DNA of 64,000 bases from a virus. Position numbers and translations under genes: made by a program. Shown here in pieces: positions 1-57,640 of this stretch (positions are counted from its first letter, which is position 1; every line of letters begins with the position of its first letter). Location: positions 2,547 to 66,546 of IMG/VR virus record IMGVR_UViG_2667527373_000007. One strand, written 5' to 3'. The notes below the pieces were generated by a model, which worked only from the letters and a program-made list of their open reading frames with translations, was not told the DNA's origin and did not search any database.

Positions 1-314
1 TCATAATCAACGGTGAATGCTGTAGGGTTATTTGCGTTTGAATGATTAGCAGATTGTCGCTTATCATTAAAATGTAATAGTAAGATACCATAATGAATTA
101 TCTTTATGATATCCTTACGTGCTGATCCTTTACGATCATATCGTGATGCATATTTTAACACATTGCTTCTGCAAAATGCTTCTGCATCCCCTACTGAATC
201 AATGAGGTCAAGAGTCTGAACGTTGCCGACAGAATAATGACCTCTATAAGTTTGTCCAATATAATCTTGGATCTCCTTTAGGAGTTCATCTTCATTATAC
301 TTCACGGATTCCAT
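1..314 (-). CDS. DUF3310-like hypothetical protein (3' end runs off window)
   Basis: Manual translation from ATG at 314: MESVKYNEDELLKEIQDYIGQTYRGHYSVGNVQTLDLIDSVGDAEAFCRSNVLKYASRYDRKGSARKDIIKIIHYGILLLHF...; the HY...D.I...AFC..N.LKY..R..RKG...D..K..HY pattern is typical of DUF3310-like phage proteins; no stop before the window edge, so absent from the ORF track. Confidence 0.7.
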   Translation of the reverse strand, partial: MESVKYNEDELLKEIQDYIGQTYRGHYSVGNVQTLDLIDSVGDAEAFCRSNVLKYASRYDRKGSARKDIIKIIHYGILLLHFNDKRQSANHSNANNPTAFTVDY

Positions 315-481
315 ACGTATTGTATCTTATCATGATAACACTCTATTGGATTTCCGTCAAGGTCCAATAAACGAATTTTATGTAAAGGACTAGAGGGAGT
401 TCCTACTCCCTCTAAAATTCTACCAGACCTACCATCAGTAAGAGTAGCGTAATGTCCTAGATAACCATTCTTACTCGTCAT
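302..481 (-). CDS. small hypothetical protein (59 aa)
   Basis: Manual translation MTSKNGYLGHYATLTDGRSGRILEGVGTPSSPLHKIRLLDLDGNPIECYHDKIQYVWNP; fills the gap exactly and overlaps both neighbours by a few codons. Confidence 0.6.
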   Translation of the reverse strand: MTSKNGYLGHYATLTDGRSGRILEGVGTPSSPLHKIRLLDLDGNPIECYHDKIQYVWNP

Positions 482-725
482 TGTTTCTCCTTTCTATTCT
501 TAATTGTGCTGCTCTTGCTTCATCATTAAATTCAATATTTAGAGCAAAGGATTCATCCTGCCTTACAGATGCAAGTGCTATTTTTCTCACTTTACTATTC
601 TTTTCAAGTTGAGATTTATTTAAAGTGGTACGTCCAAGTTCATGCCACTCTCTAATAGTATCTGACTGAGAAACAATAAATTTTAACTCTTCCTTAGTGA
701 AATTAACGATAGCGGATTTTGCCAT
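471..725 (-). CDS. hypothetical protein (84 aa)
   Basis: ORF track; co-oriented and directly downstream of the AAA ATPase; N-terminus loosely resembles HNH endonuclease leaders but there is no catalytic motif. Confidence 0.5.
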   Translation of the reverse strand: MAKSAIVNFTKEELKFIVSQSDTIREWHELGRTTLNKSQLEKNSKVRKIALASVRQDESFALNIEFNDEARAAQLRIERRNNDE

Positions 726-1957: not shown

Positions 1958-4211
1958 ATGATACGTGTCCAATAAAGGATGATAATAACTTCTTATTAGA
2001 AGACTTACTCTTAAGCATTTTCTTAAATGCTCTGGTTATCTGTCCTTTAGTTGCATCTTCTGCAACTTCAAATTCAGCATCATCATCTAATGCATTATTA
2101 GCAATAGCATAAAGAGCAGTGAATGACATTGGATTAGGAATGATCGCTGACTTCTCTTTTTTCCATTGCTTTTGTACTTCATCATAAGATGTTTCTCTAG
2201 TACCATATCTACCAACAAAACTTGATAGATCTCTTGCTGCTAGAATACGAAATCCTAAGATAGAAACTTCTGGAAAACGATCTCTGACTTGCTGTATAAA
2301 AGTAGAAGTAACTTGAGACCAACAACCATCAAATGGCTTGTATACTCTACCAGTTTGACGATCACGTAAGCAAGTATTGTAATCAACTCTACCAGGTCTA
2401 ACGTTATAATCTTCAGAATACTCTTTGTTAATCTTTCTACCATAACTTGCATGATGTGATTCACCATCAGTTAATACACAAACATTAACTTTCTGTAGAT
2501 CATTCTTCCTCTTGAAATCTGGAATCAAATAGTTTAGCATTACCAATGCTTCATTTAATGGTGTTCCAGATAAACCAAAACCAGGAGTAGGTTGATAAGA
2601 AACTCTATGACGATAACAATATGCTTCTCTGAAAAGATTAAGACACATACGATCATAATTCTTAGAATTAGATCTTGATGAAATTACATTTACTAAATCA
2701 AACTGTCTATCATCTAGATACACTTCATTTACTTTAAGAGATTTAAAATCACGACTACCGTAAGTATCATACCATCCACTATACGGTTGATCTTCTGCTG
2801 GTTCACCATTAACAATTGAATTCTTTGCTATGAACCAATCATTAGTAAAAGCATATACTTCAAATGGGATTTGAACTTTCTTACAGAATGAAGTTAAATT
2901 AATTAACTGCTTAACTGTAGCAAGTATCTCCTGTGACATTGAACCAGACCAATCTAAAAGAAAGATCATTCCATGATTCTTTCCATCAGGAAGAACAGTT
3001 ATCTTCCGAAAAATATCTTCACTGAATTTATATTCATGAAGCTTCGTTGTAGAGAGAACCCCAGTACGAGCTGTACTAGCACGAGCATAACTATCAGCTG
3101 ATTTCCTACACTCAAACTCCTTAACGAGATAATTGACTTCTTTAGTTGATCCCTTTTTGAATGCTCTGTATTCTTCATCTGGATGTTTATATGGAAAATA
3201 ATCTGAATCTGGGAAACGTTCACCAACTGATTTAATATATGCTTCACGTTGGAAATCTATCCAATCATGTACATCAGACCAGTCAGTTACATATGTATCT
3301 AAGTTTACTTTATTTGGAATCTCAATGTAATTAAGATCAGATAGATGTGAATTAGGACGAGAAAGTTCTTTTGTTAATTGATCAAATGCTCTTTGAGTTT
3401 CTGACTCACCACGCTCACCACCTGCTTTACCAGAACCATCTTTGGTTGGTTCATCGGATGCTGGTTCTGCATTAGGTGAACTAGAACTTCCTCCTTCATA
3501 ACTAGGTGTATCTAAATCAGCAGGATCATCTTTTCCATTTCCTTCTTTAGTTAATTCTTCTACTAATTCTTCATCACTCATATCTTCAGGATCCTTCTTA
3601 CCAGAACCTTGTTGAGCTGCTGCCATCTCAGCATTTAAATCTTCTGCATCTTCCATTGCTTCCTTATCTTTCTGATTCTGCCAATCATATATTCTCTTTG
3701 CAACTTCTAGAACCTCATCAAAAGTCTCAGTAGATTCAACAGCATCTACAAATTGCTTCTCATCATCCTCAAAAGGAATAAGAGAATGAGCACCAACCTT
3801 AAAGTGAAGATTGATACGATCAATAAGATTGTAATTCTCTAGATCTTTACCTTCTGTACCAAAGAAATCTTGATCATTTAATTCTGTATATCCTCTTGCA
3901 AAACTTTTCTTAAGACCAGGATACTTACGCTTCATCAATTTCTCGATACGAGCATCCTCACATATGTTAACGTAATCCATAGAGCAATCTACATCTGCTC
4001 TCCAGTCTCTATTTGGAGTGAACAAAGCATGTCCTACTTCATGTCCAACCAACATGTCATAAACATCATTGGTTGCTAGATCCCAAAGTGGCAATGTAAG
4101 TACGCGACGATCTACGTCAAACTGTGCGGTCTCACACTGTCTGTGCTCTACTACAAGATTTTCTGTTGCTAGTAGTTTAGCAAGGTTTCCTTTAACTTCG
4201 TTGCGTTGCAT
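1956..4211 (-). CDS. metallopeptidase-like (HExxH) / VWA (CobT-like) protein
   Basis: N-terminal HEVGH...EDARIE; acidic low-complexity linker; C-terminal MIDAS elements DWSGSM, GTPLNEAL, LTDGE. Confidence 0.85.
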   Translation of the reverse strand: MQRNEVKGNLAKLLATENLVVEHRQCETAQFDVDRRVLTLPLWDLATNDVYDMLVGHEVGHALFTPNRDWRADVDCSMDYVNICEDARIEKLMKRKYPGLKKSFARGYTELNDQDFFGTEGKDLENYNLIDRINLHFKVGAHSLIPFEDDEKQFVDAVESTETFDEVLEVAKRIYDWQNQKDKEAMEDAEDLNAEMAAAQQGSGKKDPEDMSDEELVEELTKEGNGKDDPADLDTPSYEGGSSSSPNAEPASDEPTKDGSGKAGGERGESETQRAFDQLTKELSRPNSHLSDLNYIEIPNKVNLDTYVTDWSDVHDWIDFQREAYIKSVGERFPDSDYFPYKHPDEEYRAFKKGSTKEVNYLVKEFECRKSADSYARASTARTGVLSTTKLHEYKFSEDIFRKITVLPDGKNHGMIFLLDWSGSMSQEILATVKQLINLTSFCKKVQIPFEVYAFTNDWFIAKNSIVNGEPAEDQPYSGWYDTYGSRDFKSLKVNEVYLDDRQFDLVNVISSRSNSKNYDRMCLNLFREAYCYRHRVSYQPTPGFGLSGTPLNEALVMLNYLIPDFKRKNDLQKVNVCVLTDGESHHASYGRKINKEYSEDYNVRPGRVDYNTCLRDRQTGRVYKPFDGCWSQVTSTFIQQVRDRFPEVSILGFRILAARDLSSFVGRYGTRETSYDEVQKQWKKEKSAIIPNPMSFTALYAIANNALDDDAEFEVAEDATKGQITRAFKKMLKSKSSNKKLLSSFIGHVS

Positions 4212-38713: not shown

Positions 38714-41700
38714 ATATAGTCCAGTTACCACCGTTATCTACAGTGACAGTAACGCCACTTGTGATTTCGATAGGTCCAAATGAGAATGCGTTGGTGTTAT
38801 TTGGAACCGTTGCATTAGCACTGATTGAATCTCTATTAGATTTGATAACACCATAGTCATCCAACCATTGCTTATCCCCATTTGCTTCTAGTTGACCAGT
38901 AACATGAATGTTACCTTCAACTTCCAATGCTTCTACTGGATCTCTATCTGTTGAGAAGTTAATACCAACAAGAGATTGTCTGTAGATGTCATTATCATTA
39001 GGAGATTTAGTCCATCTTGATGTGACGAATTCAGCATTATTCTGGAAGAGTTGACCATTTAAGTTAACATCACCCTGAATATTTAACTGATAATCTCTGT
39101 TTACATTTGGTGATACAGTTGTATCTGTTCCAGAGAATACATTTGTGTTAATAGCAACTCTTCTGTTAGTACCTTGAACAGCAACAGCAGGAGTATTCTG
39201 CCATGTAACATTACCATTAGCAGTAGATGGAGTGATTTCAAATACATCGTTCCATCCAATCTGGTTACCAATTCTGAAGTTCCTTGCAGAAGAAGCACCC
39301 TTGAAGTAGATAGGAGCACCAGAGTTATCATTAGCAGAGTCAATACTCCAACTACCCTGAACCATACCAGAACCATTAACGTCTAGTTTATAACCAGAAG
39401 TTGCTGCTCTACCTATTCCAACATTACCACTAGAATTGACATGTAAAGAAGCAGAAGGAGCTTCTCCACTAAAGGAGTACATAACCTTAGACCAAGCACG
39501 GTCTACGATTTCAAACTTAGTATTGGATGCAGAATCACCACCAAGTTGTATAGTTAATGTACCATCTTCTCTATCTGCTGCACGACCAATCCATGCTTCA
39601 CCAGCGTTTGTCTGACTCTGTGAGAATGTACCAATTCTTATTGAACCACGTACATCCAACTTAACATTAGATGCTGGTGATGAAGTACCAATACCAACAT
39701 TGTTCTGTGAAACATCAACGAATAATGTACCAGAATCTACATTAACATCATCAGTTAATGTTGTTGTACCAGTAACAGAAAGGTTATTAGAAACTGATAA
39801 GTTAGAACCAGCACCAGTAATGTTTAGCGAACCAGTCATGGTATCGCCAGTCTTCAATACGTTGAGTGAAGATGCACCAATAATAGATGCTGTAATAGTA
39901 CCAGCAGAGAAGTTACCAGAAGCATCTCTCTTAACAGCAGTACTTGCAATGTTTGCTGACTGGAAGGTAATATTACCTGCGTTCCATGCTGTGTTACCAT
40001 TGATTGATAAACCATCAGCATTAACAACCTGAATATCTAATGTACCAGATCCATCAGTTGCGTTACCACCTTGTGCTATAAGAGCAACGTTATAGTTAGA
40101 TGCTGCACTAGCAGAAGACTTGAAGTAAATGGATGGAGAAGTTGCCTGACCATCTGATCTACCTAAGTTTAGTAAAGCTTGTCCACCATTATGATAAAGT
40201 TTTGCTACCTCATAAGTATTAGCATCTTGGATAGTAAAGTCATGGAATGTAACTCTCTGACTTGCAGTACCAATTGTTTCAGCACCAATAAAGTTACCAG
40301 AAGTTAATCTACCAATAAGTATTGTGTAATCATTAAAGTTATCACTAACATCATCATTGATTGAGATGTTATCAATCGTGAAACTACCAACTGCCTGTGC
40401 GTTAGCATTGTAAAGGTTAACTGGGTTACCTGGAATCCAAGGAGATGTATTTAATATTAATCCAGAAACATAGATCTCATACTTAGGATCTCCTAAGAAT
40501 GACTTAACTGTAGTTGAATTATTGAATACTGTTGGACTTAAGAATCTAGGTAATCTATTATCAGAAATAGTACCAAAGTTGATGTTAAGAGCATTCTGAT
40601 ACCAAGTACCTTGCTTGTTATCAAATCTATCAGCATCAAGTCCTGAATCTACACCATCGTTAAGTGATGTCCAGACCTTACCCCATGATCCCCAAGTTGT
40701 AACACCTGTTCCAGAACCACGCAACCACATGTTGTCGTTGTCTGTGAATGCAAGTTGTCTTACACCACCAAATGTAGCATCAAAACCAGAACCACCATTT
40801 CTTAAAGTTAGAACTAGGTTTCTAGTACCACCATCAGTAAGACTGTTAGCACTATTGAATATAGTGTTAGCGATAGCACCTTCAACGAAGTTGTTTGGAG
40901 CAGGGTTTGATGTAGGGTTGTTAGTACCAGTTAGTAGTCTGATAGTGTTCTGAGACTGACCAGAAATACTAATGTTATATGTACCAGATAATCTATCAGT
41001 AGGTAATGTACCAGCATTCTGGTTACCAGAGTTTAGATAGAATGAACCTTGAGCACCGTCTAAAAGGTCAGCGTCAAGTCCGCTATCAGGTCCAGTCTTC
41101 AGTTCGACAGAACCATTTCCTGCTATACCAATATTAAATTGTGCCTTCTTATATCTCGAAACACCAATGGTTCCATAGAGGTCAGAAGAAATTGTCTGAT
41201 CTGTTACACGCTTAACGTCCATAGCAACGTTAGCATACTGTCTAATAACAGTACTTACTTTCGCTTCTAGGACTAAGTTAGATCCAGTTCCAATTTCAGA
41301 TGGAGCAACTGTAATAGAGAAGTCAGCGTTATATCCACTACCAGCATCAACAACAGTTACTTCTGTTACTGCGTTACCAGATACAACTATATTGACCTTA
41401 AGATCAGTTCCTGTACCACCTGATAATGCAACACCAAAGTATTGACCATTGGTATATCCAGAACCACCATTAGATATGATAACGTCATCAATGAAGTTAC
41501 CTTGCGTGTAAGTTGACTCAAAGGTCATTGGAGACTCACCACGCTCAAACTCCAGAATAGTTCCAGCAACTATATTCTGAGTAACTGGATTATTAATAGA
41601 GACTGTAGTTAATCCACCAGCAGTGACAACACCTGTAATATTTGTGTTTGGATCAATTCCAGTATTGGTCTCATTAACTGTATGACCAACCAAAGCATTC

Positions 41701-52120: not shown

Positions 52121-55100
52121 TTATTTCTTAGTAATATTTGATACGATAGTCACCTTAACGGTATGAGTCGCTAGGACATTAGCTCCTAATGTCATATTTA
52201 GTCTAACCTCATTGTTAGATGTCATTTCAAATTCTGGTACAATCAATTCAATTCCAGTTCTTAGATTTCCATATTCGTTGTATACAACATTCACTCCATC
52301 ATCTATAACACCAAACTCATACATTTCTTTATGTGCATTTGATACGTTCTCTGCTACGACAACAACCTTAGCACCTTTCTCAGTTGAAGTTGGATAAATG
52401 ACTGAGTTACCACTGTTAGATGAACCCTTAACCATAGTAACAACATCAGTTAATATCCTAAGATCAGCAAGTTCAAACTCTTTAAGATCGCTATCAAAGA
52501 CCTTAACTCCACTATATGTTCCTGTACCAAATCCTGTGTTTAGATATACATCACCTTGATCATCTAATCTTAAAATAGGATCTGTATAAACACCAGATGA
52601 TACACCTAGATCAAAGTATTGCTTAGAACTATGAAGGAATGTCTTAGTAGCAGATGTGTTGTCAAGAGTTGTTGCAGCACCATCAAATGTGAATAGAGAT
52701 GCAGTGATCTCAAATTCATCAGTAGTACTAGAAACAATAGTATCAACTGAATAAAACTCAAATGCTGACTGAGTTAATCTCAATGCATTATTACCAGCAG
52801 TATAGAAGTATAAAGTATCTTCATCACCACCAGCAGTTAATTCAGGAACAATATAAGTATCTTGGTCAACGTCTTTAACACCACCCAATGATCCCCAGTT
52901 CAATCCATCAAATCCTTCATATTGAAGTGTGGATGAGTTATATCTGATAGAACCTCTTTCAGCAACACCTCTTTGAGCAGTGTTACCAGATGGAACTACT
53001 AATGATGTAGCAGCATCAATCTTAACTTTTTTACCAGAGTTAGGTCTAATATTTAAGTCACTAACATCAGTTGAAATCTCATTACCAAGGAATCTTAGAT
53101 CTCCACTAATAACAAGTGGACATGTCTTATTAGGACCAACTCTAAGTTCTTGAATATCATCAAATGTTAATGGAGCAACACCCAATCCCCAGAATGTTAA
53201 TTCCGCAGTACCATTAGCAAGAGCACCAGATGTGTGTATTGGTTCATTACCAGTAGTAGCAGTAGTACCAGGAATAGTTACTTCATATAAATTGTTTAAC
53301 CACTTAACATATTGTCCTGCTGTTACAGGTGCGTTAGCATTCCACTCTGTATACGCAGGTGCAAGTACGTTTACAGAACGTACCTTCTTCATGTTTACAA
53401 ACTCAAGGAAGTTAGGACTTACCTTAAGTGTATTAACGTTATCGTTAAAGAACCAGATAGTGTTATCGTTAGCACCAACTGTCTCTTCTGCCAACATGTA
53501 GGTGTTTCCATCTAAGTCTCTTACACCACCTAGAGATGACCATGATGTTGTACTAGAATGATAACCTTCGTACTGATTAGATGTAGTATTAAATCTAATC
53601 ACACCATCCTTCGTAACAGCAGGGCCAGGTCTGGATGCTGTATCACCAGCAGGAACTGCGAAACCAGATAATGCATCTACACCAGCAATTCTTCCTTGCT
53701 CTGGTTTAAGAGTAATATCCTTAGCATTGAAAGAAGTTATTGTAGCATCATCACCAGTAATCTTAAGATTATCGCCAGCTCTAATATCATCAGATTTTAA
53801 ATAACCACCAGTAGCAACTGTTAAGTTACCAGTAGCACCCTCAATCTGTATTGTTGGTACAAATGGAGTACCAGATCCAACTTTAAAGAATTGAGTTGTT
53901 ACTTCAACGTCCTTATCTGCATCAGTCTGAATACCTAATTTTGTACCAGTAATAGCACCAGCAGTAGCAGGAGCTTTTAATAATGGAGTTTCTAATGATG
54001 CACTAGCAATAGCAACAGTAGAAGTTAGATTAGGAATAGTAGCATTACCAATTTCACCATCAGTTGAAACAAGATTTCTAACAGTGAATGATCCATCAAG
54101 AACTTCACCCTTAATAATTTCTTCTATAACAACATCATTAACAAGTAACTGGAATCCAGTACCAAATGTCTTAGGGTTATTTTGATCAATGGTAATTGCT
54201 GATTCTTGACCATCTTCACCACCTTCATTAGTATGGTCAATACTATCAGTAGCACAATAGTAATAAAGTGTTGGAGTATCTTCAGTTACTTTAATACTTA
54301 AAGCTTCAGATCCAGCAGCACTAACTCTCGTTACACCATCAGTATACTCAGCACCAAAAACATTAAATTCAACTGCACCACCAACTGTAGGCAATTTGTC
54401 AATAGTAAACTGAGTTGCACTATCAACACTTACAATCTTTGTATCAGCAGCAAATGTACCTGCTCCTTGGTCAGCAAGATCTTTCTCTACAACAAACCCT
54501 ACTTTATATCCAGTTGTAGAACCAACTGTAATTTGAGTTGCTGTTGATGCTAATGTTGCTGTCTGACCTTCTACTCTATCCCATCTTCCATCTGGAAATG
54601 AACTTAGAGAGAATATATGACCACCAAGTGTAGCACTATTTAAATCAAATTTATATTCATTACCAACAAACAATGTTAATGCTGGAACAAATTGATCAAC
54701 ACCATTTCCAGTATCAATAGTAAATCTAAAGTCATCAGCAGAACTTTGTACCTCATATGCCGTAGTACCAGCAGCATCATTAACAAAGAATCCACCAGCA
54801 TTAAGACCAAAGTAGTCGATGACCATATATGTGATCCATCCACCAGCTGCTACAATCTTACGCACAGCAGTACCAGTACCAGCAGAACTTACACTACCAA
54901 CTGCTAATACAATATTATCAGCAGGAGAAGCACCACCAACTAAAGTTCCATCAATAGTTACTACTTCTGTATCTACATAAAATCTTCCTTCATCTCCAGT
55001 AGTTATAGTTACTGATAAAACAGCACCTGTATTATCACGAGTAACATCAAATTTTGCACCAACACCAGATCCAGCAGATGTTGAAGCAACTCCACTGTAT

Positions 55101-57640
55101 GTCGCATCTGCTGCTGAACCTACAGTAGTAGATGTAGTAATACCAACAGCAATAATTCCACCACCAGGATCTCTTACCAAATCTCCAACTGCAAATGCGG
55201 TATCAGGAACTGTATTGGATACTGGTGTTACCTGTTCAACTTGTATATTCTTAACAGTGTATACAATTGGTTGAACAAGATCACGAGGGTTAACTGTTAG
55301 AATATCATTTTTAGTATATCCATTACCACCATCAGCAACAGCAACTTCAGTAACAACACCTAGTTGATCAATAGTAAAGTTAAAATTCTGTCCGTTACCA
55401 TAAGAAGGAACAAAGTTTGCAACAAGAGGACCAGCAGTATCAGGTTGTACAGATATTTCTACCGTAGTAGCATCAATAATAGCAGTAACAGTAGTACCAG
55501 CAGCAAATGCACCAGTACCACTTACCTTAGTAACTTCCATTCCGTCTCCAATGAGACTAGAATCTGGAACAGTTAAGTAAGTTGGATTCTGGTTAGTAAT
55601 ACTAATATCAGCATCACCTGGAGTTGGTGGTGCTGCTGATAATGTTATCTGAGTAGCATTGTCAACAGATTGTACAGTTGTATTAGCAGCTAACTGACCA
55701 GTATTATTAATATTGGCAAGAATGTCAACAGTATCACCAACTAGAATACCTGTTGTATCACTAAGTGTGATTTGTGGATTAGAAGGAGCAACACTCTGTA
55801 CGGCAATAGTTAAATCATTATTTGGAGTAGCACCACCAAGTAAATCACCAGTAATTACAAGTTGATCTGAAGGAAGATATCCTGTACCAGCATTGTTGAC
55901 AGTAATAGTATCGTATGATGCGTTACCACCAGCAAATATGACATTAACATCAACATTAAATCCAGCACCAGCACCTCCAGTAGGAGTTATGTTACTAAAT
56001 GTTGCGTTCGCACTACCAGCAGCAATACCAGTTAAGTTATAAGTGACAATTGCACCAGTAGAAACAAATGTAGTACCTGGTCCAGTGAATTCTAATACAC
56101 CTCGTGCAATTGTGCTAACGTTTGTCGTACCACCAGGTAGTGTTAATACATCATTAACAGAATATCCTGTACCATATCCAGAATAATCATCAATAGCAAG
56201 AATAGCACCAAAATTACCACCAAGAGTATATTGGAATCCAGAACCTGTTACACCAGCACCAACATCACCAGCAGATTGTAAATCTGTTGGATCAACACTA
56301 CATACGTCACCAGATGTATATGCTCCATCACCAGAACTAGTAACAGAAACAGTAGTAATAGTTCCACCAACTGCTGTTATCTCTGTACTAAATCCACTAC
56401 CAGTTGTATGGTCAGTTAATGTAACTTGACCTCCCATTCCTGCATGTTGACCACAGTTAAGGTATAAGTTATTATTTGCAGGAGCAGCAGGAACTACAAA
56501 TGTTACTTGTCTTGTTGTATAAGTTGTATAATTAGCAAGCCAATCTGTTGGTGTAACTGAAGCACCATCTCCAGTATATGTTACACCTTCAGCATTACCT
56601 ATAATACTTGCATTGTCATCCTGTGCTGTACCAAAGAATAATGGATGTGTGGCAGCAGTTGTATCATTTAAATCAAATATGTATGTTTTTCCTTTGAAGA
56701 GTGAAAAACTACCAGCAGATTTACCATCAAAGAAATATAAACCATTAGCAGCTTTAACTACAAATGTCTGTGTACCAGCAAGAGGAAGAGTTCCAGTAAG
56801 TACGTCACCTACTTGATAACCAGCACCTGCTGATATAACTTCACTACCTCCAGCAGCACCAAATTCTTGAACGTTACCACCCTGAACAGAAATATTTGCA
56901 AGGAAGTTTGATCCATTTCCTCCTGTTAATGGAATACTCTTATAAGTTCCATCGGGATAACTTTGTCCACCTGTAGTTGTAAAAGTCCATGCATCAACTG
57001 TGATATCTGCTTGAAGTCCAGTACCAGTACCACCAGTTAAATCAACACCTGAATAAGCACCTGGTGTATAGTTAATACCACCATTAGTTAAAACACCACC
57101 AATCTCATCAACTGTAAAGTCAATAGTTGCACCAGAACCAGTTCCACCAGTTACAGGAATAGTCTGATATGTACCTGGAGTATATCCAGTACCATTATTT
57201 GTAATAGTTCCAGTAAATCCCGCAACTGTCATGGACAGAGTAGCACCATCACCAGTACCACCCAATGTTGCTACTTCAGGATATTGTCCACCATCATAAT
57301 TCTGACCAGCAGTTTGGATAGAAATAAGTAATGAATCCAGACTGTTTTTCTCAACAACGAAGTCCCTATAATATTTCGTTGATAATTCAGATAATGTTGC
57401 TAATTTCTTACTGTTACTAACAAATCCAAACAAACCATTGGCTTGCTTGTACATTCCCAAATCTGGATCGTTTGTAAAAGCTAGACTGGGTTCTGAAACA
57501 GTACCATCACCTAGTTTTATATTACCTGCTTGTAGATCACTTCCTCCAGAAGTAACATTAAACAGTTGACTTGCTATATCGTTAACCTTCGTCCTCTGTT
57601 GTTCGAGGGTATCGGTTCTTGCTACACTAATTGCTGGCAT
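52121..57640 (-). CDS. large fibre-like virion structural protein (1839 aa)
   Basis: MPAISVARTDTLEQQRTKVN fibre-type N-terminus, Gly/Thr-rich GxGY repeats, two cupredoxin-like inserts, twice-repeated GxIRxN...YEG...WxSLGGVxDxD module. Confidence 0.8.
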   Translation of the reverse strand: MPAISVARTDTLEQQRTKVNDIASQLFNVTSGGSDLQAGNIKLGDGTVSEPSLAFTNDPDLGMYKQANGLFGFVSNSKKLATLSELSTKYYRDFVVEKNSLDSLLISIQTAGQNYDGGQYPEVATLGGTGDGATLSMTVAGFTGTITNNGTGYTPGTYQTIPVTGGTGSGATIDFTVDEIGGVLTNGGINYTPGAYSGVDLTGGTGTGLQADITVDAWTFTTTGGQSYPDGTYKSIPLTGGNGSNFLANISVQGGNVQEFGAAGGSEVISAGAGYQVGDVLTGTLPLAGTQTFVVKAANGLYFFDGKSAGSFSLFKGKTYIFDLNDTTAATHPLFFGTAQDDNASIIGNAEGVTYTGDGASVTPTDWLANYTTYTTRQVTFVVPAAPANNNLYLNCGQHAGMGGQVTLTDHTTGSGFSTEITAVGGTITTVSVTSSGDGAYTSGDVCSVDPTDLQSAGDVGAGVTGSGFQYTLGGNFGAILAIDDYSGYGTGYSVNDVLTLPGGTTNVSTIARGVLEFTGPGTTFVSTGAIVTYNLTGIAAGSANATFSNITPTGGAGAGFNVDVNVIFAGGNASYDTITVNNAGTGYLPSDQLVITGDLLGGATPNNDLTIAVQSVAPSNPQITLSDTTGILVGDTVDILANINNTGQLAANTTVQSVDNATQITLSAAPPTPGDADISITNQNPTYLTVPDSSLIGDGMEVTKVSGTGAFAAGTTVTAIIDATTVEISVQPDTAGPLVANFVPSYGNGQNFNFTIDQLGVVTEVAVADGGNGYTKNDILTVNPRDLVQPIVYTVKNIQVEQVTPVSNTVPDTAFAVGDLVRDPGGGIIAVGITTSTTVGSAADATYSGVASTSAGSGVGAKFDVTRDNTGAVLSVTITTGDEGRFYVDTEVVTIDGTLVGGASPADNIVLAVGSVSSAGTGTAVRKIVAAGGWITYMVIDYFGLNAGGFFVNDAAGTTAYEVQSSADDFRFTIDTGNGVDQFVPALTLFVGNEYKFDLNSATLGGHIFSLSSFPDGRWDRVEGQTATLASTATQITVGSTTGYKVGFVVEKDLADQGAGTFAADTKIVSVDSATQFTIDKLPTVGGAVEFNVFGAEYTDGVTRVSAAGSEALSIKVTEDTPTLYYYCATDSIDHTNEGGEDGQESAITIDQNNPKTFGTGFQLLVNDVVIEEIIKGEVLDGSFTVRNLVSTDGEIGNATIPNLTSTVAIASASLETPLLKAPATAGAITGTKLGIQTDADKDVEVTTQFFKVGSGTPFVPTIQIEGATGNLTVATGGYLKSDDIRAGDNLKITGDDATITSFNAKDITLKPEQGRIAGVDALSGFAVPAGDTASRPGPAVTKDGVIRFNTTSNQYEGYHSSTTSWSSLGGVRDLDGNTYMLAEETVGANDNTIWFFNDNVNTLKVSPNFLEFVNMKKVRSVNVLAPAYTEWNANAPVTAGQYVKWLNNLYEVTIPGTTATTGNEPIHTSGALANGTAELTFWGLGVAPLTFDDIQELRVGPNKTCPLVISGDLRFLGNEISTDVSDLNIRPNSGKKVKIDAATSLVVPSGNTAQRGVAERGSIRYNSSTLQYEGFDGLNWGSLGGVKDVDQDTYIVPELTAGGDEDTLYFYTAGNNALRLTQSAFEFYSVDTIVSSTTDEFEITASLFTFDGAATTLDNTSATKTFLHSSKQYFDLGVSSGVYTDPILRLDDQGDVYLNTGFGTGTYSGVKVFDSDLKEFELADLRILTDVVTMVKGSSNSGNSVIYPTSTEKGAKVVVVAENVSNAHKEMYEFGVIDDGVNVVYNEYGNLRTGIELIVPEFEMTSNNEVRLNMTLGANVLATHTVKVTIVSNITKK

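Follow-up and report, generated by a model that had tools for sequence, protein, structure and literature searches.

Proteins in which domains are inserted into one another have been described in several settings. The Si3 arm of RpoC2, in the β′ part of cyanobacterial RNA polymerase, is composed of eight SBHM (hybrid-motif) domains connected by recursive insertion over six levels (PMC13114784), and its structure has been reported (PMC10895346). In gp18 of phage T4 (PDB 3FO8/3FOA), domain I lies in domain II, II in III, and III in IV, and domain I, a six-stranded barrel, is an inserted domain whose ends adjoin (PMC3004832). In RTX adhesins such as AhLap and MpIBP, a domain is split so that ligand-binding domains project (PMC12077191). 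Here we analyzed a window of 64,000 nucleotides (nt) from a virus (IMG/VR record IMGVR_UViG_2667527373_000007, positions 2,547 to 66,546), in which an open reading frame (ORF) at 52121-57640 on the minus strand encodes a protein of 1,839 amino acids (aa) carrying a stack of half-domains. We consider it likely that these form four nested barrels, each inside the b2-b3 hairpin of the previous one (residues about 103-797). For RpoC2 Si3, recursive insertion of the homotypic kind has been described before; what would be new here is its occurrence in a phage virion protein and in an undescribed domain family.

An initial annotation of the DNA had described four consecutive half-domains (openers) followed by four complementary halves (closers), and both sets were found where it had placed them. 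The openers cover residues 106-252 (nt 57325-56885) in units of ~38 aa, each with a short strand, GxxY, xxGxYxxVxxTGGxGxG, and xxxxxV, and the closers occupy residues 253-282, 423-448, 474-500, and 758-782, within a returning part that spans 253-790. The whole-domain profile was built from 15 uninterrupted barrel copies (alignment A3), and openers 1-3 and closers 2 and 4 were not among the seeds. Openers 1-3 matched only the N-half of the profile (positions 5-44) and closers 2 and 4 only the C-half (positions 23-72), with independent E-values (i-E) of 8e-6 to 1e-10 (8e-12 for closer 4). Opener 4 together with closer 1 matched nearly the whole domain. Closer 3 was the weakest, being detected only by the half-domain (closer) profile at 13 bits. 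The uninterrupted domain predicted in the 4,286-aa tail fibre of the same window was recovered at residues 3360-3441 (nt ~41250-41490; Table 1), and it aligned with opener 4 plus closer 1. In an orthologue alignment of 54 sequences with 30-89% identity, the anchor G and Y residues were invariant. No tandem repeat was found at the DNA level, suggesting that the half-domain copies are old. The profile search also located intact copies in the 1,839-aa protein itself, at residues 532-618 and 831-918. The latter barrel lies just after the stack (window 54887-55147, minus strand; profile positions 3-87) and belongs to a sub-type ending in GG..P..D.

The fold was read from the residue ranges reported by a structural aligner on predicted models. 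We modelled 706 residues of the 1,839-aa protein (predicted local distance difference test score, pLDDT, 89.3) and residues 95-374 of the orthologue L002, a fragment of 280 residues comprising openers 1-4 and closers 1-3 (pLDDT 93.1; predicted template modelling score, pTM, 0.81). The underlying alignments held 54 and 77 sequences, respectively. L002 has the same layout of four openers and four closers (4+4) as the 1,839-aa protein and lacks the cupredoxin described below. Nearly all structural matches to the L002 model covered residues 125/126..208 as one compact domain. The best match of 126..208 was the entire domain I of T4 gp18 (3fo8_D, chain 98..188; Z 5.4, root-mean-square deviation 2.7, 75 residues aligned), followed by EF-Tu-type barrels and sheath or baseplate barrels; a Z of 5.4 to the gp18 domain I and EF-Tu domain 2 type falls in a score range that shows a common arrangement only. 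As the L002 tip barrel spans the whole of gp18 domain I, its strands b0 and b5 belong to the barrel. The repeat unit is thus modelled as a six-stranded barrel of ~84 residues with the order b0-GxGY-b1-GGxGxG-b2 / b3-GxGY-b4-loop-b5, which we call the GxGY barrel. This revises the earlier outline of the unit, which we read as four strands: the short strand and GxxY in front of each opener are the b0 of that same domain, and the 'GSGF/GQNF' strand assigned to the outer closer is instead b5, the last strand of the inner domain. In the structural search with the 706-residue model, the GxGY barrels were absent from the match list, and only the cupredoxin and the small barrels of the side branch were seen.

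We regard it as extremely improbable that the segment is a glycine-rich, loosely structured piece of fibre that AlphaFold rendered over-confidently as barrels. An abundance of G, T, and S and the lack of a solved relative by sequence speak for such an artefact; against it, the two models reached pLDDT values of 89 and 93 from separate alignments, the independent BFVD model of the orthologue from phage ACG-2014e superposed on the L002 fragment model (template modelling score 0.63 over 273 columns), and the hydrophobic strand patterns are conserved in the 54 orthologues.

The two halves of the barrel resemble each other, which is why the stack was first read as a tandem repeat. That starting model, eight independent tandem units of ~38 aa, was dropped on the evidence of the orthologue model and the half counts. 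A plain tandem in which eight equivalent three-stranded half-barrels pair with their sequence neighbours like beads on a string, with loop insertions in the later units and with only the cupredoxin and the small barrels nested, was kept as a rival because plain arrays exist in other proteins, and we judge it very unlikely. In its favour, all units share the layout of GxGY, strand, loop, strand, and strand, a 'GSGF' strand resembling b2 stands before the closers, and the closers match the profile at positions 23-71. Nevertheless, the contiguous barrel in the model consists of units 4 and 5, and neighbour pairing in that register would orphan units 1 and 8 in a 4+4 protein and not in one with three openers and three closers (3+3). 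The flanking strands in the L002 model end at residue 122 and start at residue 211, within 3 residues of the tip barrel (126..208), indicating that both leave it at the same end, which is likewise at odds with a string of beads.

The positions of these flanks fit the nested pairing, in which opener 4 joins closer 1 and each further pair encloses it, out to opener 1 with closer 4; this arrangement, proposed in the initial annotation, best fits all of the evidence, including the b2-b3 hairpin as the hairpin turn used for insertion. According to the model, the flanks of the tip barrel lie where they could pair with each other to form the b2-b3 hairpin of a barrel further out. The inserted tip barrel has adjoining N and C ends, as judged from its end-to-end alignment with gp18 domain I. 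Some structural matches were wider and were bounded by residues 85..254 (85..247, 87..226, 102..254, and 99..252, the last with 66 residues aligned), and one spanned 53..280 with 57 residues aligned. Their borders and sizes are those predicted for the third and second barrels (D3 and D2, counted inward from the outermost D1 to the tip barrel D4), with low Z values of 2.3-4.2; in a plain tandem, the ends at 85 and 254 would fall in the middle of the supposed neighbouring barrels. The L002 fragment has neither the D1 closer nor b5 of D2; in it, b0 of D2 was no longer a strand, and the first opener, U1, fell to a pLDDT of 63-90. Both D2 b0 and U1 were ordered in the full 706-residue model of the 1,839-aa protein. 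The lengths of b0 and b5 agree within each proposed pair in both models. Two strands of 20 and 23 residues run continuously across unit borders in the model of the 1,839-aa protein, the 20-residue strand being b2 of U1 running into b0 of U2. A pTM of 0.81 over 280 residues also argues against independent beads.

The numbers of openers and closers in orthologues were compared next to the models. Orthologues carry either 3+3 or 4+4 halves, with 4+4 in P0001 and P0040 and 3+3 in P0053, P0054, P0060, and P0065; in the P0081/P0122 pair, the half pattern is DD(DD)DDDDDD, where D is an intact domain and brackets are lone halves. Neighbour pairing would change partners, or leave orphan halves, between 3+3 and 4+4 orthologues, and nesting keeps the partners, which supports nesting. 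Among 145 distant representatives, 29 have equal numbers of lone N- and C-halves, and every one of these 29 is properly bracketed, compared with 11.2 expected at random order. They comprise 24 distinct architectures, such as (((D)))D, ((D))((DD)), and DD(DD)DDDDDD.

Several points weigh against nesting. The evidence for the outer pairs, which we infer, is indirect; the structural matches by which D3 and D2 are recognised score low (Z 2.3-2.9); the drop in confidence of the orphaned opener U1 is modest; the topological evidence comes from the orthologue model and not from the 1,839-aa protein; and AlphaFold models are predictions. The automatic half counts are noisy, many strings being off by one: an opener that the cupredoxin interrupts goes undetected, and the b0 leaders give weak closer scores. 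Of the 145 representatives, 18, P0138 and P0204 among them, carry opener-like units in long arrays that have no closers, indicating that half-barrels can stand in simple tandem. The period of these true arrays, 46-50 aa, exceeds that of the openers of the stack (38 aa), which lack the full b3 hairpin.

The arrays themselves, found in P0138, P0164, P0204, and 15 other representatives, extend up to ~3,000 aa with 20-40 plain repeats. The unit reads GGSGYTSAPTVTI-SGGSGTG-ATATATI..., with the period given above.

The GxGY barrel is a large, undescribed domain family without a database model. Its profile matched 8,065 protein clusters at E <= 0.001. Pfam gave no match for P0001, P0081, or the giant fibre, NCBIfam contained no family for the barrel, and the protein atlas returned low scores only (0.85). 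Sequence matches in the PDB were antibody light chains at E >= 0.01 and were discarded as spurious. As the initial annotation had inferred, the family is distinct from that of the nested barrels of the giant fibre: the profiles of the GxGY barrel and of the small barrels A and B yielded no match at fibre residues ~806-2156.

The stack also carries other domains. The initial annotation had placed a cupredoxin-like domain and GxxV...TxVxSxxxATQITLS modules in the returning halves; both proved to be real folds, but the cupredoxin lies inside the b4-b5 loop of the tip barrel itself. A Greek-key beta-sandwich of cupredoxin type is present by structural match, to rusticyanin (2cal; Z 8.2, 102 residues aligned), small laccases (Z 7.5-7.9), and AcoP and plastocyanin (Foldseek probability 1.0). 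Candidate type-1 copper ligands H332, C396, H399, and M402 occur in canonical order, and each is conserved in at least 90% of the orthologues, which points to a kept metal site. Their spacing is H332...C396-x2-H399-x2-M402, and the short ligand loop has a C-x2-H-x2-M pattern that we take to be of amicyanin type. Judged from these residues, the cupredoxin may possibly bind metal. Pfam PF00127 gave no hit to the 1,839-aa protein at E <= 1, and a sequence search with the cupredoxin against the PDB gave no significant match; the distant relative P0079 reaches PF00127 with 21.5 bits against a cut-off of 21.2. The cupredoxin has a different position in the P0027 orthologue group, where it occupies the b1-b2 loop of the tip barrel, as opposed to the pseudo-symmetric b4-b5 loop in the group of the window. 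The GxGY units before and after it shift between the two groups, from 4+4 to 5+3 (P0027 group versus P0001 group).

The GxxV...TQITLS modules are themselves nested, with small barrel A holding small barrel B, and B holding an intact GxGY barrel (profile positions 4-87). The separated halves of A and of B clearly form one fold each in the model, with discontinuous matches to 8eci (Z 8.2, 67 residues over model 409..651) and 9n71 (Z 7.7, 69 residues over model 421..588). The whole tree would then be D1(D2(D3(D4(cupredoxin)), A(B(barrel)))), with five levels along either branch as modelled.

Further inserted domains appear elsewhere. A second cupredoxin-like stretch was noted from sequence at residues 971-1135 (window ~54245-54730, minus strand; GNEYKFDL...GGHIFSL...YYYCATD...H), and within it residues 1035-1089 form an apparent third small barrel of the A/B type (i-E 6e-8). 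In P0079, P0082, and their relatives, the openers and closers seem to be several hundred to ~1,000 residues apart, suggesting very large inserts in the GxGY barrel; between the distant halves lie a Pfam-level plastocyanin domain (P0079) and Laminin_G_3 (P0082 group). The positions of the features are collected in Table 1.

Table 1. Features of the stack and of the intact fibre barrel, with window positions (all minus strand); barrels D1-D4 are named according to the proposed nested pairing.
Feature	Residues	Window position	Strand	Basis
N-terminal region ahead of stack	1-105	57326..57640	-	columns nearly invariant in 54 orthologues
U1, opener of outermost D1 (b0, GQNY, b1, GG-loop, b2)	106-142	57215..57325	-	profile positions 6-44 only; model strands E24-33, E40-59
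U2, opener of D2	143-180	57101..57214	-	profile matches; b0 continuous with U1 b2
U3, opener of D3	181-215	56996..57100	-	profile positions 5-40 only
Tip barrel D4, b0-b4 contiguous (opener 4 + closer 1)	216-286	56783..56995	-	profile positions 2-65, i-E 5e-20
Cupredoxin in b4-b5 loop of D4	287-412	56405..56782	-	structural matches
b5 of D4	413-423	56372..56404	-	model strand E323-329; placed by analogy with L002 b5 (E201-209)
Closer of D3 (b3, GDGAY, b4, loop, b5)	424-473	56222..56371	-	profile positions 23-71 only; closer profile
Closer of D2 (b3 + b4)	474-502	56135..56221	-	closer profile 13 bits; conserved in orthologues
Side branch in b4-b5 loop of D2		55406..56134	-	barrel A (503-514 + 683-745), B (515-539 + 618-682), intact GxGY barrel (540-617)
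b5 of D2	746-757	55370..55405	-	first part of 23-residue strand E654-676
Closer of D1 (b3, GNGY, b4, probable b5)	758-797	55250..55369	-	profile positions 30-72 only, i-E 8e-12
Intact barrel in 4,286-aa fibre	about 3358-3441	41250..41498	-	profile positions 3-86, i-E 1.5e-24

The b5 strand of D1 probably corresponds to residues 791-797, where the model ends.

Taken together, the findings make it most likely that the 1,839-aa virion protein of this marine, T4-like cyanophage forms a stiff side arm with a cupredoxin at its tip. In the proposed arrangement, the chain would go out through the four N-halves, turn in D4, and return through the four C-halves. Wherever two barrels meet, it would pass from outer b2 directly into inner b0 on the way out and from inner b5 into outer b3 on the way back, so that neighbouring barrels would be joined by a two-stranded ribbon. 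This would give a stiff arm of four barrels ~10 nm long (our own estimate, at roughly 25-30 Å per barrel). Both chain ends would lie together at the base of the arm, which would allow it to branch off a baseplate or fibre protein with the main chain unbroken. The barrel loops may serve as cargo sites, the tip barrel bearing the cupredoxin and barrel 2 a sub-branch of three levels, and the arm would thereby display binding modules. Its length would change in whole barrels (3 or 4 in orthologues) as an intact barrel is added or lost at the hairpin of the tip. The shape of the arm, its lengthening by such steps, and its contact with the host surface are all presumed from the features above.

That the stack is nested but serves as a strut or spacer inside the baseplate periphery, with the cupredoxin as a metal-free structural fold rather than part of a projecting receptor-binding arm, is a real possibility, if an unlikely one. 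The C-terminal part of the protein matches a PHROG annotated 'baseplate wedge subunit', the closest fold, T4 gp18 domain I, binds the baseplate and the retracted fibres and not the host (PMC3004832), and the Pfam copper-binding model does not score on the protein, all of which would suit this reading. The conservation of at least 90% in the His, Cys, His, and Met columns at identities of 30-89% and the cargo domains on loops at the tip argue against it, as do arm length and cargo position, which vary among orthologues in a way that we presume usual for host-facing parts. Going further than the arm itself, one could see in the GxGY barrel a widespread 'extensible joint' of phage fibres, in which recursive insertion at the central hairpin would produce stiff, two-stranded rods measured in whole barrels. 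In this lineage, such a rod would hold out a cupredoxin loaded with copper, which would contact the host in a way that depends on metal or involves redox activity; we rate this broader idea as rather unlikely.

Neighbouring genes encode the tail-fibre protein of 4,286 aa, a virion protein of 166 aa, and a third protein longer than 2,052 aa. For the 1,839-aa protein itself, there is a match to PHROG 6005, annotated 'virion structural protein'. T4-like Synechococcus phages contain its nearest named relatives, at ~30% identity. Megablast against phage records gave no match, tblastn returned only isolates ~30% identical, such as S-H9-2 and ACG-2014h, and metagenome orthologues showed 50-89% identity. 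A motif, G.IR(F/Y)N....QYEG(Y/F)....W.SLGG, occurs twice in the C-terminal part, at residues 1348-1360 and 1565-1577 (window 53561-53599 and 52910-52948, minus strand), and hardly varies among orthologues; its second copy falls inside the 'baseplate wedge subunit' match.

If the nesting holds, the phage would possess a second barrel family, unrelated in sequence to the first, that is built by recursive self-insertion, and nesting would be a general cyanophage route to branched, stiff appendages whose length changes in steps of whole domains. Such proteins would have to be parsed as brackets rather than beads, a pattern that repeat finders and the usual domain annotation overlook. Conserved residues of a copper site, carried on a virion arm, would offer a testable lead on how marine cyanophages touch their hosts. 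We found no paper describing nested insertions in phage fibres or cupredoxins in cyanophage virions.

The stack can be set beside the systems introduced at the outset. It would share with T4 gp18 nested insertion in a T4-type virion protein, and gp18 domain I gave the tip barrel its best structural match; the domains of gp18, however, are all of different folds (heterotypic), and the similarity is at the level of the fold only, with none found by sequence. Like the RTX adhesins, it would have a domain split in a fibrillar surface protein, whereas the adhesin splits are single-level, heterotypic, and bacterial. The cupredoxin resembles rusticyanin, plastocyanin, and AcoP in fold and in the His...Cys-x2-His-x2-Met pattern, and it differs from them in being embedded in a loop of a virion barrel and in falling below the Pfam model. 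The likeness to RpoC2 Si3 would lie in copies of one small beta domain inserted into one another to give an elongated arm. The fold is different and the sequences are unrelated, and Si3 belongs to a cellular enzyme, whereas the stack belongs to a virion protein. Compared with Si3, the stack would be split at the central b2-b3 hairpin of a pseudo-symmetric barrel, with four homotypic levels (five with cargo), and it bears heterologous cargo, the cupredoxin and the small barrels, on its loops.

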